Below, in pieces: positions 8,891 to 14,428 of a stretch of DNA of 25,533 nt. A program made the position numbers and the translations under genes. This DNA comes from an uncultured Anaerolineaceae bacterium (lineage in GTDB: Bacteria; Chloroflexota; Anaerolineae; Anaerolineales; Anaerolineaceae), in contig CAZTEP010000001.1 in assembly GCA_964612325.1 (NCBI GenBank), positions 1 through 25,533 on the forward strand. The letters are read 5' to 3'. The notes beneath the pieces were generated by a model. It ran no database searches and had not been told where the DNA came from. It worked only from the letters and a program-made list of their open reading frames with translations. How positions within the stretch are numbered: the first letter of the stretch is position 1; the number at the start of each line of letters is the position of its first letter.

Positions 8891-9682
8891 TTATTTCAAA
8901 GCAGCGCGTTGATCTGTGTCTAAATAGCTTTTATGCTGTACGTCTTTGAGCGATTCCTGCCATTCAGGGTGTTTAAGGTTAGCTTCAAGCAACTCATCCA
9001 AACCGAACCGATCATTCTCAGCAAAATGTGCGTATATTTTATTAGCCAGGGCATAATCTGCCGGCGTATCCACGGTAAAGCGAAGGTGGCCAATTTGGCG
9101 TGGGTCATCCACCACACAAACCCTGGCCCGGCCTTCAACACTATAAATCCATGGCATCACGTGCTCACGCTCAAAACCCTGACTGGCATTTTTCCAGGCT
9201 TGCTCTAATATTTCAAACCGACACACCTCAGTATCCATACCGATGGGGGTCGTGCGTTTAAAGGGTGGTGGCAAACGGTTTGCCGAAAAATCGCAGTCTT
9301 TTTCAAAAAAGTTCTCGATAACCCTATCAATTTCCCCTGGATCAATCATCGGACAGTCCGCGGTAATCCTCACCACCGTTTTGGCTCCGGACTGTAACGC
9401 GGCCTGATAATAACGATCCAGTACATCATAAAGACTGCCCCGATAAAACGCGACACCCCACTCAACACAGGCTTTTTGAATAGCATCATCACGCTCATCA
9501 GTCGTTGTAGCCACCAAAACTTTGTCAATCAACCCGGCTCGACTCACTCGGTCAATCACCCGTTTGAGCATCGGCACACCCCCCACAGGCAATAAAGCCT
9601 TGCCCGGCAAACGGCTTGAGCTCATGCGCGCTTGAATAATGGCCACTACCGGCCGATTAAGGGGATGATTATTCTGCGTCAT
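8891..9682 (-). CDS. spsF: SpsF-like cytidylyltransferase (263 aa)
   Basis: IIQARMSSSRLPGK, RGSLYDVLDRY, VRITADCP, FEREHV, RFTVDTPAD. Start ATG 9682. Confidence 0.88.
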   Translation of the reverse strand: MTQNNHPLNRPVVAIIQARMSSSRLPGKALLPVGGVPMLKRVIDRVSRAGLIDKVLVATTTDERDDAIQKACVEWGVAFYRGSLYDVLDRYYQAALQSGAKTVVRITADCPMIDPGEIDRVIENFFEKDCDFSANRLPPPFKRTTPIGMDTEVCRFEILEQAWKNASQGFEREHVMPWIYSVEGRARVCVVDDPRQIGHLRFTVDTPADYALANKIYAHFAENDRFGLDELLEANLKHPEWQESLKDVQHKSYLDTDQRAALK

Positions 9683-10301
9683 TTTCAACCACATCAATCA
9701 TAATAGTGCCAATGCTGTCTTCAAAAAAATCCGACGCGCCAATCATACCTTCTGGGGTAAACATAAACAAATTTACCCACAGATAGCCTTGCTCTTTAAA
9801 GGCGTAAGCGACCCAGGCAATATCATCTTTGCTGTACTTGAAGCGTAAAACCGAACGGCCTCCTAAATGCACAGTAGCTTGCTCGACCTTGGTTTCTTCG
9901 TTATTTAAAATTCGCTCAAGGCCAAACGCTGTTGTCGTAAGAGGCAATGCGTGGAGTGCTTTATTCTTGATGACCAACAATCGTAAGGGGTTTTCTTCCA
10001 ATGTTTCTGAATCCCAACCCCACCAGGCCACATTTTGGTTAACGTTTTCCAGCAAAGTGCTCAACAAACCATCGTCACCGCCGGTAAAACGTTTGATGAT
10101 GTCCACAATCGACGGCAAGTCGTCTTGCACATTACGTTCCACAAAACTGGCGGGCAGCATAATGCTCATTCCCTGTCCCTGATATCGCTCCATGCCACTT
10201 GGCATGACTGGCTCTGTGGGAGTTGCCTGGTTGGGTTGAGCAAACTGACAGGCACCAAGACTCAGGATTATCGTTAAACTAATCAAAACTAATTTCTTCA
10301 T
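9669..10301 (-). CDS. Putative lipoprotein of unknown function
   Basis: MKK plus a hydrophobic stretch plus LGAC (Cys18), then a Q/P/T-rich linker. 1 nt after the GT4 stop and overlaps spsF by 14 nt. Confidence 0.75.
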   Translation of the reverse strand: MKKLVLISLTIILSLGACQFAQPNQATPTEPVMPSGMERYQGQGMSIMLPASFVERNVQDDLPSIVDIIKRFTGGDDGLLSTLLENVNQNVAWWGWDSETLEENPLRLLVIKNKALHALPLTTTAFGLERILNNEETKVEQATVHLGGRSVLRFKYSKDDIAWVAYAFKEQGYLWVNLFMFTPEGMIGASDFFEDSIGTIMIDVVENDAE

Positions 10302-10302
10302 G

Positions 10303-11412
10303 TCAGGCCTCTTTCTCTGAAGAGACTATAGCGGAATAACAAGCTAATAATTTCTTTTTATTTTCTTCCCAGTTTGCTTTTTCCTGAGCTGTTAAGCGTG
10401 CCTGATAACCCATAGCGCGCCAGTCATCATTTTTCAATTTCACAATAATCTCCGCGAGCCTGATAGGGTCATTGTCGGGAAAAATCCAGCCATTTTCGCC
10501 ATCACGCACCCATTCCAGGTTAGCCGGAATATCGGAAACCAGGGAGGGTAAACCACAAGCCATGGCTTCCATCAAAGACACCGATGAACCATCCACATGA
10601 CTTGAACTTACATAAACATCTGCCGCGCCATAGTACATGCCTAAGTCTTTGTTTGGCACACGCCCACCGAAAAAGACCTGTTCACACACACCAGCATCCT
10701 CAAAGATTTGTTCAATCATAGCGCGCTGAGAGCCATCACCCAAAAGCAAAAGCCTTAAGTCAGGTTCTTGCTTAGCAGCAATTGCGAACGCTTTGGCTAA
10801 AACATCCACCCCATAGTTCGCCTCCATAGTACGCAGGCAAAGCAAAACGGTTTTATCTTGCCAATTATTAGCTTCACGCCATCGCTTACCAGAAGCGACC
10901 ACTGCCTGGGGCGAGAATTTCTCAAGGTCAACACCCCAGGGGAATACACAGATACGTTCTAAATCAAAACCAAGCTGAACCGCTTTATCAGCAGAACACC
11001 GCGCGTCAGTGATTAATGCCTCGGAATGTGCCAACGCGTATCGCGCGCGACTCGCCATACCGGCATCTACATTGACATCACGCATCAAATCAAAACCCCA
11101 GCTCATACTCAACAAGGGCTTAAAACCAGTTTTGGCAATTAAATAAGCCAAATCATGTAAAGGCCCGGCATGCACCAAATCGGGTTTGAGTTCATCAAGC
11201 AGTTTTTTAAGGCGTGTTAGCAGTGATGGAATTTGCCACAGACGTAATGGCCCCTTAATGCCTTTGAAGGGGATTTGGCTAACGCCTTCCGGGGTTACGT
11301 AATCGCCTTCATACAGGCGCAGGACATAAGCCTCGTGGCCACTTTCAGCCAAGGCCGCCATAAAGCGTTGATCATGCACACTATCTGCTCGCGTGAAGTA
11401 TAAAATCCGCAT
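10303..11412 (-). CDS. Family 4 (GT-B) glycosyltransferase
   Basis: PWGVD, LLLLGDG, VFFGGRV, YVSSSHVDGSSVSLMEAMACG (D-x7-E variant of E-x7-E). Confidence 0.9.
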   Translation of the reverse strand: MRILYFTRADSVHDQRFMAALAESGHEAYVLRLYEGDYVTPEGVSQIPFKGIKGPLRLWQIPSLLTRLKKLLDELKPDLVHAGPLHDLAYLIAKTGFKPLLSMSWGFDLMRDVNVDAGMASRARYALAHSEALITDARCSADKAVQLGFDLERICVFPWGVDLEKFSPQAVVASGKRWREANNWQDKTVLLCLRTMEANYGVDVLAKAFAIAAKQEPDLRLLLLGDGSQRAMIEQIFEDAGVCEQVFFGGRVPNKDLGMYYGAADVYVSSSHVDGSSVSLMEAMACGLPSLVSDIPANLEWVRDGENGWIFPDNDPIRLAEIIVKLKNDDWRAMGYQARLTAQEKANWEENKKKLLACYSAIVSSEKEA

Positions 11413-11414
11413 TT

Positions 11415-12479: not shown

Positions 12480-12496
12480 ATGCCTCCAAAAAGCCA

Positions 12497-13417
12497 TTAG
12501 GCTTGATACGCGGCCAGTTTTTCGCGCCAGCCTTTATCAAAATCAACCTTCAATGCGTTTAGTCCGTCTGCCAAACCCGGCAGTTTATGCCCCAGCGCTG
12601 CTGCCAACTTATCGCTGTTGGTACTGAGGTTAGCTGACTTCAAAGTTTCGCGCAAAACATCTTTGCTTAAAACTGGCTTAATTAAGTTTTCATCCAAGCC
12701 AAAAACGCGCGCCAAAGTCACGCCAAAGTCGTATTTACTAAGCGTATCGTTGCCAAAAGTGTGCCAAATGCCACTGAGCTTTGCCTCAGCAATTTCAAGT
12801 AAGGTTTGTGCCAAATCTCCCACGTACATTGGATTGAAATAAGCATCGCTAAAACCATTGACTGCTTTTCCGACGCTCAAATTGTTGTAGAAAAATTCAG
12901 ACAAACTGCGATTGCCGTCCATCGTCCAACCATAAAAGACCACCCGACAAATGGCCACGTCCGGGTTGGCTTCTGCGACGGCTTGCTCGCCTTTGAGTTT
13001 GCTCACCGCATAAACGTTTAGCGGGTTAACAGCGTCATCTTCCTTGTAATTGCCTTTGTTACCATCAAAAACCGCATCAGTAGAAATGTGAATCATCTTT
13101 GAGCCCATTTCTTTGGCTGTGGTTGCAATCACAGCCGGTACCGCTGCATTGATGTGATGGGTAAGCTCTGGATGTTTCTCCGCAAAATCAATGTTGGCAA
13201 TGGCAGCGCAATGGATAATCAGCTCCGGCTCCAAAGCTTTTAAACGAGCCGGCAAAGCATCCAAATTACCTAAATCGACACTTTCGCTCACAAAGGGCGT
13301 GTTTTTAAGCTCTCTGGAGTGTGACCATCCCGTTACTTCGTAACCTTGATCGACTGCCAGAAGTGCCAAATTGAGCCCAAGGTGTCCGCTCGCCCCGGTA
13401 ACAAGCAACTTTGTCAT
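12497..13417 (-). CDS. RmlD-like NDP-4-keto-6-deoxyhexose reductase (extended SDR)
   Basis: TGASGHLG, IIHCAA, HISTDAVFDG, YAVSK. No rmlA/B/C nearby, and it follows pseB directly. Confidence 0.88.
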   Translation of the reverse strand: MTKLLVTGASGHLGLNLALLAVDQGYEVTGWSHSRELKNTPFVSESVDLGNLDALPARLKALEPELIIHCAAIANIDFAEKHPELTHHINAAVPAVIATTAKEMGSKMIHISTDAVFDGNKGNYKEDDAVNPLNVYAVSKLKGEQAVAEANPDVAICRVVFYGWTMDGNRSLSEFFYNNLSVGKAVNGFSDAYFNPMYVGDLAQTLLEIAEAKLSGIWHTFGNDTLSKYDFGVTLARVFGLDENLIKPVLSKDVLRETLKSANLSTNSDKLAAALGHKLPGLADGLNALKVDFDKGWREKLAAYQA

Positions 13418-13420
13418 CGT

Positions 13421-14428
13421 TTACTTTTCTTTCGCCAGTTCAGCTTCAATCGGTTTGACGATGGCGTTAATCCCATCCACATCAAGCCACTCTGTGTTGT
13501 TCGCGCTGGTGTAGGTAAACCCATCTGGCACAGCTTTGCCCTTATTCGCCCAGGCATGCCCGAACCAAAGAGCTTCCACCGTTGGTTGCACCACAAACAT
13601 ATCTTCCAGTTCAACGGTGGTGCGCGCTTCGTCTTCGGAAATTAAACTCTCATGCAATTTTTCACCAGGGCGAATACCGATAATCTTAATTGTTGCTTCC
13701 GGTGCAATCGCTTTTGCTAAATCGGTCATCTTCATGCTGGGGATTTTAGGAACAAACAGTTCACCACCCTGCATTTCTTCAATACAGCGAATAACAAAAC
13801 GCACACCTTGTTCCAGAGAAATCCAAAAACGGGTCATGCGCTCATCTGTAATGGTCAGTTCGCCACTGGGACGCTGTTTGATGAAGAGAGGCACTACCGA
13901 ACCGCGCGAGCCAACCACATTGCCATATCGCGAACAGGCTATGCGCGTTTTGCGTCCGCCGGCATAGGCGTTGCTTTGTACCATCAGTTTTTCAGCAGCC
14001 AATTTTGTGGCACCATACAGATTGACTGGGTTAACAGCTTTATCGGTGCTAAGCGCCAGTACTTTTTCGACATTATTGGCAATTGCCGCGTCAATAACAT
14101 TGCTTGAACCCATGATATTCGTCTTAATCGCTTCCATCGGATTATATTCGCATGCCGGCACCTGTTTGAGCGCCGCGGTATGCACCACGATATCCACACC
14201 ATAAAAGGCGGTCATCAAGCGGTCACGGTCGCGAATATCGCCAATAAAATAGCGGATTGAGGGATGGTTAAAACCACCCACCGCGCGCATTTCGTGTTGC
14301 TTCAACTCATCACGGCTGAAAACAATGATTTTTTTCGGCTGATACTCGTCTAACATAAGGCGAATAAACTTCTTGCCAAACGAACCGGTGCCACCGGTAA
14401 CTAATACTGTTTTTTCTTTCCAATTCAT
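13421..14428 (-). CDS. pseB: UDP-N-acetylglucosamine 4,6-dehydratase (PseB/FlaA1 type)
   Basis: [67 protein letters not shown]. Confidence 0.95.

Follow-up and report, generated by a model that had tools for sequence, protein, structure and literature searches.

A predicted amine-sparing route to a CMP-activated nonulosonic acid in a putative wall-polymer locus of Anaerolineae

A 25,533-nucleotide (nt) stretch of DNA from an uncultured Anaerolineaceae bacterium (contig CAZTEP010000001.1, analysed as a whole and referred to here as the window) carries a five-gene cassette on its minus strand. It is reasonably probable, in our opinion, that this cassette encodes a linear route to a cytidine monophosphate (CMP)-activated nonulosonic acid without the usual 7-amino group, a product deduced from the genes and meant for a wall polymer exported by an ATP-binding cassette (ABC) transporter. 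In transcription order, the five genes encode the dehydratase PseB (13421-14428), an RmlD-like short-chain dehydrogenase/reductase (SDR; 12497-13417; PF04321, E = 1.3e-54), a NeuB-type synthase with a SAF domain (11415-12497; PF03102, E = 1.5e-69; PF08666, E = 1.4e-10), a GT-B protein similar to glycosyltransferase family 4, or GT4-like protein (10303-11412; PF00534, E = 3.8e-33; PF13477), and an SpsF-like cytidylyltransferase of the CTP_transf_3 family (8891-9697; PF02348, E = 2.4e-32). The 25 large open reading frames (ORFs) that together fill the window were scanned against Pfam or NCBIfam, and no DegT aminotransferase, acetyltransferase, PseG, Glyco_tran_28 or NeuC protein was found among them, nor were Epimerase_2/UDP-sugar 2-epimerase, rmlA, rmlB or rmlC genes. 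An earlier note on this DNA, made from the letters alone, had listed pseB, the reductase, NeuB+SAF and the cytidylyltransferase, and had stated that aminotransferases and acetyltransferases are missing from the window. Profile matches recovered all four genes in their places on the minus strand and the scan bore out the absence, but the list had overlooked the GT4-like gene, a lipoprotein gene, a second NeuB, and two further cytidylyltransferases, one of them fused to a HAD domain and the other the third of the locus.

The product of the first gene is, on profile evidence, PseB, the inverting 4,6-dehydratase of uridine diphosphate N-acetylglucosamine (UDP-GlcNAc). It passes the equivalog cutoff of TIGR03589 (498.2 bits vs 407.75), contains the STDKA and YGATK motifs, and matches FlaA1 of H. 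pylori (PDB 2gn4) with E = 5e-117, whereas its 280 bits against the FnlA model TIGR04130 (cutoff 730) leave it outside the FnlA/WbvB type. Only 3 nt separate this gene from that of the reductase, which in turn overlaps the NeuB gene by 1 nt, and judged from this spacing the reductase is translationally coupled to both. The reductase itself is below the RmlD equivalog cutoff (TIGR01214, 187.7 bits vs 224.05), with E-values from 4.5e-31 to 1e-17 to its best solved RmlD relatives; human MAT2B, a regulatory RmlD-like protein, also ranks among its best solved relatives. Its motifs are intact (GASGHLG at residue 8; STDAVFDG, with STD at 112-114; YAVSK, with Y136 and K140), and both the cofactor motif and the catalytic Ser/Thr-Tyr-Lys are invariant in 28 diverse members of a family that comprises 1,636 clusters at 50% identity (E < 1e-30). 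Its closest relatives are labelled Anaerolineaceae or Chloroflexi, and the subfamily has motifs of its own, such as YGW...SLAEW. We propose that this protein is a UDP-2-acetamido-2,6-dideoxy-L-arabino-hexos-4-ulose 4-reductase, where both the substrate and the nucleotide preference are predictions. A reaction of this kind is known, as WbvR of Vibrio cholerae O37 carries out an RmlD-type reduction of UDP-2-acetamido-4-keto-6-deoxy-L-hexose. The cassette enzyme shares with RmlD and WbvR (UDP-L-RhaNAc/L-QuiNAc) the fold, the catalytic motifs and, as predicted, the C4 reduction of a nucleotide-linked 4-keto-6-deoxy-L-hexose. Unlike RmlD, however, it falls short of the equivalog cutoff and has PseB rather than rmlABC as its neighbour, and unlike the WbvR and FnlABC-WbvBRD pathways, the cassette has a dehydratase of the PseB type instead of FnlA/WbvB and is devoid of a 2-epimerase (WbvD/FnlC).

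The order of these genes is strongly conserved. A genome scan with the reductase alignment gave at least 593 hits in species-representative genomes, and the best 80 loci, one per species, were annotated with the window's proteins; the counts that follow use only loci with enough flanking sequence. All of these best 80 loci belong to Anaerolineae, and they include the cultured Pelolinea submarina MO-CFX1 as well as metagenome-assembled genomes (MAGs) assigned to Anaerolinea, Longilinea, Leptolinea and Brevefilum. PseB is immediately upstream of the reductase in 70 of 72 evaluable loci and NeuB is the next gene after it in 76 of 77; the GT4-like gene then follows in 67 of 69, and a cytidylyltransferase is found downstream of the reductase in 56 of 61. 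The cassette is free of aminotransferase genes in 79 of the 80 loci. One locus has a DegT and GT2 pair inside the cassette that resembles an Arn-type insert, and other species-specific inserts encode membrane transferases of the GT-C type, DUF4910 proteins and unknown proteins. Because the order is kept across 80 loci, the whole operon can be regarded as a hallmark of the class, and its cassette as aminotransferase-free. Such conservation bears on the possibility that the locus makes ordinary pseudaminic acid (Pse), or another 5,7-diamino sugar, with the help of pseC, pseH and pseG genes located elsewhere, while the RmlD-like protein would be an enzyme for an unrelated 6-deoxyhexose or a non-catalytic partner. 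In favour of this explanation are the full equivalog status of PseB, the fact that the gene search covered the window and not whole genomes, and the presence of the regulatory MAT2B among the best solved relatives of the reductase. We nevertheless consider it decidedly unlikely, given that the aminotransferase-free cassette is preserved as a whole in 80 Anaerolineae species and recurs in several phyla, that the NeuB scores below the PseI cutoff and the cytidylyltransferase below that of PseF (see below), that the reductase retains its catalytic residues and cofactor motif and is coupled between PseB and NeuB, and that rmlA, rmlB and rmlC are missing from the window.

In loci from other phyla the reductases are only 35-41% identical to the query, and yet the genes follow in the same order. 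The series PseB-reductase-NeuB+SAF-GT4-like-CTP_transf_3 was found in a Modestobacter sp. (L006) and an Acidobacteria MAG (L007), and the same order in locus L089; in a metagenomic contig beside flagellin and FliW genes, with a sulfotransferase inserted (L090); in a Wzy-type locus up to the contig end, which comes after NeuB (L091); and in Nocardioides nematodiphilus (L096), where the cytidylyltransferase, joined to an aldo-keto reductase in one protein, is encoded divergently. The dehydratases of L006, L007, L090, L091 and L096 pass the PseB cutoff in all five cases.

The synthase reaches neither the cutoff for N-acetylneuraminic acid synthases (TIGR03569, 278.9 bits vs 399.65) nor that for PseI (TIGR03586, 247.5 bits vs 340.25). 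The earlier note had pointed out that this protein has QCNTNYT where common synthases show C-x-x-x-YP, an observation that proved to reach further than a single sequence. The motif, at residues 188-194 (window positions 11916-11936), aligns with HCTNIYP of N. meningitidis NeuB; MQCNTNYT was present in 91 of 91 reductase-linked NeuBs from the collected loci, and a synthase encoded on a Maritalea myrionectae plasmid, 51% identical, carries FQCNTNYT. Since all linked synthases and that of Maritalea carry it, the motif is a clade signature rather than a quirk of one protein, and by this signature the window NeuB is a member of a distinct MQCNTNYT subfamily. Alignment with N. meningitidis NeuB also showed conservation of the metal-histidine motifs GLSDHT and EKHFT, whose histidines we take to be His215 and His236 of the meningococcal enzyme, and of the SAF arginine, which in meningococcal NeuB touches the N-acetyl group of the substrate. 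Retention of the metal histidines and of this arginine fits a substrate of the N-acetylhexosamine (HexNAc) type. While the enzyme class is evident from these sequence features, free 6-deoxy-HexNAc is its predicted substrate.

NeuB-type enzymes require a free aldose, and removal of UDP must therefore come before condensation. This is the step missing from the earlier note, which had proposed that reduction in place of amination leads to a 7-hydroxy-9-deoxy nonulosonate; the proposal is otherwise chemically coherent, and it gains from the gene order given above and from the recurrence of the cassette in other phyla. Our candidate for the missing UDP-sugar hydrolase, and thus for a functional equivalent of PseG, is the GT4-like protein, which we propose as the least secure step of the pathway. 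Its orthologues invariably show H13-D14-x-R-[FW] behind the first strand, at a position that a glycine-rich loop occupies in ordinary GT4 enzymes, and also share the motifs SWG[SF]D and PWG[VI]D, which are invariant and specific to the cassette. PseG is itself a GT-B protein, in which an N-terminal histidine activates water. Moreover, NeuB is followed by this gene in Chloroflexota, Actinomycetota and Acidobacteriota as well as in the flagellin-associated L090 and locus L008, and the slot of the gene between synthase and cytidylyltransferase is the same in a locus for an ABC-exported polymer, in Wzx-/Wzy-type loci and in a flagellin island. A slot that stays constant across such different glycoconjugates is not what would be expected of a polymer-specific glycosyltransferase. 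Together, the constant slot, the replacement of the glycine loop by His-Asp and the GT-B fold of PseG are the reasons for proposing a hydrolase. A single-sequence structure model of the protein had a mean predicted local distance difference test (pLDDT) score of 44, too low to be used.

Alternatively, the GT4-like protein may be an ordinary glycosyltransferase. PseB and the reductase would in that case make a UDP-6-deoxy-HexNAc donor for it, NeuB would act on some other free sugar, and the genes would form a co-regulated set. The protein does score as a normal member of the GT4 family, and Pfam and NCBIfam scans of the window returned no canonical hydrolase. In addition, a 2017 structure paper on F. 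nucleatum 25586 reportedly describes free-standing 6-deoxy-L-AltNAc residues next to the nonulosonate in the O-chain, which would make a donor role for the UDP-sugar plausible. We consider this explanation unlikely all the same, as neither the cassette nor the window has a NeuC or other 2-epimerase to supply NeuB with a different substrate, and as both the invariance of the slot in polymer, Wzy-type and flagellin settings and the His-Asp in place of the glycine loop speak for a different role of the GT4-like protein.

The cytidylyltransferase is SpsF/KdsB-like rather than PseF-like: it reaches 29.3 bits against the PseF model TIGR03584 (cutoff 205.7), and its best solved relative is 6oew (E = 2e-32). 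That an SpsF-like enzyme can take the place of NeuA or PseF in a Pse-type cluster is documented for Vibrio sp. B9-25K2 (PMC7371886), and the legionaminic acid pathway encoded by the sps genes of Bacillus subtilis likewise relies on an SpsF-type enzyme for CMP activation (PMC7439481). Both of these clusters, however, retain an aminotransferase, an acetyltransferase and a PseG-type hydrolase, all of which are missing from our cassette. In 14 of the 80 Anaerolineae species loci, including L010, L017 and L086, the cytidylyltransferase and the methyltransferase that follows it form a single ORF of approximately 570 amino acids (aa). This fusion ties the methyltransferase (7985-8875; a member of the S-adenosylmethionine (SAM)-dependent enzymes, PF13489, E = 3.6e-20) to the same sugar, and it may O-methylate the CMP-sugar. 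An apparent absence of the cytidylyltransferase in eight loci was dismissed as an artefact of best-hit labelling, the gene there being fused to the methyltransferase. Two other genes do not appear to belong to the core set. The first, between the GT4-like and cytidylyltransferase genes (9669-10301), encodes a 210-aa lipoprotein-like protein (MKKLVLISLTIILSLGAC) with a signal peptide and an LGAC lipobox, for which Pfam and NCBIfam gave no match. It is found in a subset of Anaerolineae loci only and is absent from L006, L007, L089, L090 and L096. Because it is missing across phyla, it is best seen as a lineage-specific insert, and the unit that travels as one of five genes. The second, downstream of the methyltransferase (7027-7983), encodes a 318-aa protein, likewise without a Pfam or NCBIfam match, that is kept in nearly all Anaerolineae loci and is absent from the cross-phylum cassettes; its single-sequence structure model had a mean pLDDT of 36, too low for use.

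Taken in order, the cassette would work as follows. PseB, an assignment made from its sequence, would convert UDP-GlcNAc to UDP-2-acetamido-2,6-dideoxy-beta-L-arabino-hexos-4-ulose. The RmlD-like SDR would then reduce C4 with NAD(P)H and yield a UDP-6-deoxy-L-HexNAc, either the L-AltNAc or its C4 epimer L-IdoNAc form, thus replacing the amination and acetylation by PseC and PseH, as gene order, coupling and conservation suggest. In what is the weakest step, the GT4-like protein would transfer the sugar to water and free the 6-deoxy-HexNAc, the task of PseG. The MQCNTNYT-type NeuB+SAF would condense the free sugar with phosphoenolpyruvate (PEP) to give a 5-acetamido-3,5,9-trideoxy-non-2-ulosonic acid, and the SpsF-like cytidylyltransferase would make the CMP-sugar, possibly O-methylated by the neighbouring methyltransferase. 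In Anaerolineae, a KpsC/S-like transferase would finally add the CMP-sugar to an anionic wall glycan, similar to teichulosonic acid and exported by Wzm/Wzt. This route has the same first enzyme and follows the same logic as the CMP-Pse pathway of Helicobacter and Campylobacter (PseB, PseC, PseH, PseG, PseI and PseF), in which UDP-GlcNAc is dehydrated, C4 is tailored, UDP is dropped, the sugar is condensed with PEP, and the product is activated with cytidine triphosphate. It differs in having the RmlD-like reductase for PseC/PseH and the GT4-like protein for PseG, and in a product that is predicted to bear a hydroxyl group rather than an acetamido group at C7. In line with these differences, four of the five tests for membership in the CMP-Pse pathway beyond PseB failed, and the window yielded no equivalog of PseC/PseH, PseG or PseI/PseF.

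We know of only one natural nonulosonate with a 7-hydroxy, 9-deoxy skeleton, namely fusaminic acid, the 5-acylamino-3,5,9-trideoxy-L-glycero-L-gluco-non-2-ulosonic acid of the F. nucleatum ATCC 25586 O-antigen. The link to this skeleton drawn by the earlier note is chemically sound by Fischer-projection bookkeeping. Carbons C5 to C8 of fusaminic acid have the L-altro arrangement that would be expected from 6-deoxy-L-AltNAc, that is, from a C4-reduced PseB product; by the same bookkeeping, pseudaminic (L-glycero-L-manno) and fusaminic (L-glycero-L-gluco) acids would share the configuration of L-altrose at C5-C8 and differ only at C4. The configuration of this carbon is set by the synthase, and the existence of a separate synthase subfamily could account for the difference. 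For the cassette itself, the C4-reduced intermediate could be either 6-deoxy-L-AltNAc or 6-deoxy-L-IdoNAc. The parallel also has its bounds, as Fusobacterium is unrelated to the cassette carriers, whose product and its stereochemistry are predictions. A homologue search from one low-GC-type reductase relative returned archaeal, Planctomycetota and Omnitrophota members and no Fusobacterium. The literature searched covered fusaminic acid, the biosynthesis of trideoxy nonulosonates, nonulosonic acids in Chloroflexi and this combination of genes; in it we found no account of the present pathway, of genes for fusaminic acid biosynthesis or of genes for a 7-hydroxy nonulosonate. A SugarBase preprint and an article on the Geobacillus flagellin island proved to have no bearing on it. 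The suggestion of the earlier note that such a pathway is undescribed in this lineage agrees with these empty searches, although they do not prove it.

Several points weigh against the route we favour. It is deduced from genes, so that the chemistry, and the glycan structure of any cassette carrier, are predictions. The hydrolase role of the GT4-like protein is read from position and motifs, no recognised PseG/NeuC-type hydrolase being present, and the predicted reductase may prefer either UDP- or deoxythymidine diphosphate (dTDP)-sugars. As the negative results refer to the window, pseC, pseH or pseG could be elsewhere in the genome. On the Maritalea plasmid, the QCNTNYT-type NeuB occurs without this reductase. 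The reductase-NeuB pair, for its part, is also found where PseB is not close by: in L008 it is accompanied by the GT4-like gene, and in L093 from Planctomycetota by genes for a GNAT protein, an aldo-keto reductase, a cytidylyltransferase and a class-III aminotransferase. In the P0166 context, its companions are a cytidylyltransferase::aminotransferase fusion and, 7 kb away, a Polysacc_synt_2-type dehydratase. Pairs without a nearby PseB imply that the role of the pair may not depend on PseB. Judged by these contexts, the reductase family is not confined to a single variant pathway, which leaves room for other explanations.

One of these places the action of the reductase later than that of the synthase, with the nonulosonate or its CMP derivative as substrate (a keto intermediate in an epimerisation, for example), and makes the enzyme a general partner of the NeuB subfamily rather than of PseB. 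The reductase-NeuB pair is indeed the most constant unit of the cassette, and it persists without an adjacent PseB in L008 and L093. Such a role, however, would leave the fate of the 4-keto group made by PseB unexplained wherever the cassette includes PseB. Furthermore, an insertion sequence (IS) element lies directly upstream of the L093 reductase and may have displaced a dehydratase gene, and the P0166 context does have its dehydratase, albeit at a distance. Evidence from Pacearchaeota points the same way: at L092:5606-7900, a gene for a 764-aa fusion of a B12-binding radical SAM domain to a PseB-like SDR domain is divergent from an adjoining gene of the reductase family, with other radical SAM and glycosyltransferase genes around and no NeuB. 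A reductase beside a PseB-like domain and without a synthase supports a role downstream of PseB-type dehydratases, and we therefore regard action after the synthase as highly improbable. The 546-aa protein P0182 was also considered as a fusion and rejected, as the first 240 residues seem to stem from a start called too far upstream in a high-GC contig rather than to form a real domain.

The variant loci also have features of their own. Divergent from the pair in L008 are aldo-keto reductase, DegT, cytidylyltransferase and GFO genes. An alternative neighbourhood of the NeuB subfamily recurs in L093, P0166, L096 and L094/L095 (the Maritalea plasmid), and the reductase is part of it in all but the last. 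It consists of an aldo-keto reductase, often fused to an SpsF-like cytidylyltransferase, a class-III aminotransferase and a GNAT protein, and by its gene content it looks like another uncharacterised nonulosonate variant.

Returning to the amine-sparing route, we would tentatively extend it to an undescribed branch of nonulosonate biosynthesis, possible though hardly assured, in Chloroflexota, Actinomycetota, Acidobacteriota and other groups. This branch would combine three components for which no counterpart has been described, namely a dedicated UDP-4-keto-6-deoxy-HexNAc 4-reductase, a GT4-derived His-Asp UDP-sugar hydrolase and a separate MQCNTNYT NeuB subfamily, perhaps with a facial selectivity of its own, to make a 7-hydroxy-9-deoxy sugar of the fusaminic or 7-deamino-pseudaminic type, which would serve as a building block of a teichulosonic-acid-like wall polymer nearly universal in Anaerolineae. 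Genome prediction of nonulosonic acids works with three templates, those of neuraminic, legionaminic and pseudaminic acids, and if our reading is correct, a fourth, amine-sparing branch would have to be added. The origin of 3,5,9-trideoxy sugars such as fusaminic acid would be explained, genes now labelled 'dTDP-4-dehydrorhamnose reductase', 'N-acetylneuraminate synthase family' and 'glycosyltransferase' would acquire three new functions, and new enzymes would become available for the synthesis of sialic-acid analogues. Anaerolineae are abundant filamentous bacteria of digesters and sediments, and their envelope chemistry is, to our knowledge, essentially uncharacterised; the near universality of the locus in the class offers a concrete handle on a surface polymer. 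Cultured carriers of the cassette include Pelolinea submarina, Modestobacter sp. and Nocardioides nematodiphilus.

The cassette is embedded in a series of closely spaced or overlapping minus-strand genes that runs nearly without break from 20610 to 1. A scan for promoters and terminators gave counts near shuffle expectation, which is compatible with a single long operon and no proof of it. The series opens with an HTH_24/MarR-type regulator (20032-20610) and continues with an SDR resembling GDP-fucose synthase (Fcl-like; 19083-20075; 290 bits vs a cutoff of 500). This Fcl-like protein was also considered as the enzyme that might reduce the PseB product and was rejected, as its gene is missing from the cross-phylum cassettes. 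In L091 a homologue is beside fucokinase and GDP-fucose pyrophosphorylase genes, which argues for a role with a GDP-6-deoxyhexose; no GDP-mannose dehydratase was found in the window, though the biosynthetic part of the operon starts with the Fcl-like gene. Next come the permease Wzm (18239-19102; PF01061), the ATPase Wzt with a C-terminal Wzt_C domain (16956-18368; PF00005, PF14524), a 555-aa KpsC/S-like protein (15288-16955; PF05159, E = 1.3e-5; NF046086, E = 1.7e-6), whose gene is kept upstream of the cassette in Anaerolineae, and a methyltransferase (14432-15295), followed by PseB.

This context indicates where the sugar may be used. The locus has Wzm together with a Wzt whose C-terminal domain is of the glycan-binding kind, as is characteristic of ABC-transporter-dependent assembly, and the best NCBIfam matches of Wzt, none of which reaches its cutoff, are ATPases for the export of teichoic acid and galactan. 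In total, the locus contains three cytidylyltransferases, two NeuB homologues, two KpsC/S-like proteins (the second at 418-2037) and methyltransferases in addition to Wzm/Wzt, and reads as one for an ABC-transporter-dependent polymer with two or three CMP-activated acidic sugars. Both KpsC/S-like proteins, of about 550 aa, have weak matches to Capsule_synth (KpsC/KpsS) and to the BFO_1060 family, a model named after a Tannerella forsythia gene, and their similarity to solved KpsC structures is non-significant; both are candidates for the transfer of CMP-activated acidic sugars. The nearest analogue described in monoderms is the teichulosonic acids of Streptomyces and other actinomycete walls, anionic, phosphate-free polymers based on Kdn and sometimes methylated (PMC11481543), to which the Wzm/Wzt_C, KpsC/S-like proteins and methyltransferases of the locus compare. 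The sugar of those polymers is Kdn, however, whereas an N-acetylated, 9-deoxy sugar is predicted here, and the Anaerolineae polymer is itself a prediction from genes.

Downstream of the 318-aa protein, the operon continues with a GT2 protein (6008-7027) and then with what appears to be a second ulosonic-acid module (2041-6021, minus strand). The members of this module are an oxidoreductase of the GFO/IDH/MocA type (5011-6021), a short-chain dehydrogenase (4163-5017), a PseF-like cytidylyltransferase joined to a HAD domain that resembles the KdsC and Kdn-9-P phosphatases (2925-4178), and a second NeuB (2041-2949), which is without SAF and among solved structures comes closest to the Leptospira enzyme 6ncs. 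Its gene content suggests that a different CMP-sugar is made through a phosphorylated intermediate. At the edge of the window, only the start of the third cytidylyltransferase gene is included (1-417; MSLDKIVALVPMRHESVRVVGKNYRPMCGKPL...), whose product was judged CTP_transf_3-like by eye from the translation; with it, the locus encodes three CMP-sugar synthetases. At the opposite end, the region 20700-23600 on the plus strand has a GC content of 0.37-0.38, compared to about 0.47 in the rest of the window, and covers three ORFs (20732-21370, 21617-22276 and 22308-23576) for which the only family match was one weak Reg_prop repeat. The region has no relation to the operon and is possibly a recent acquisition.

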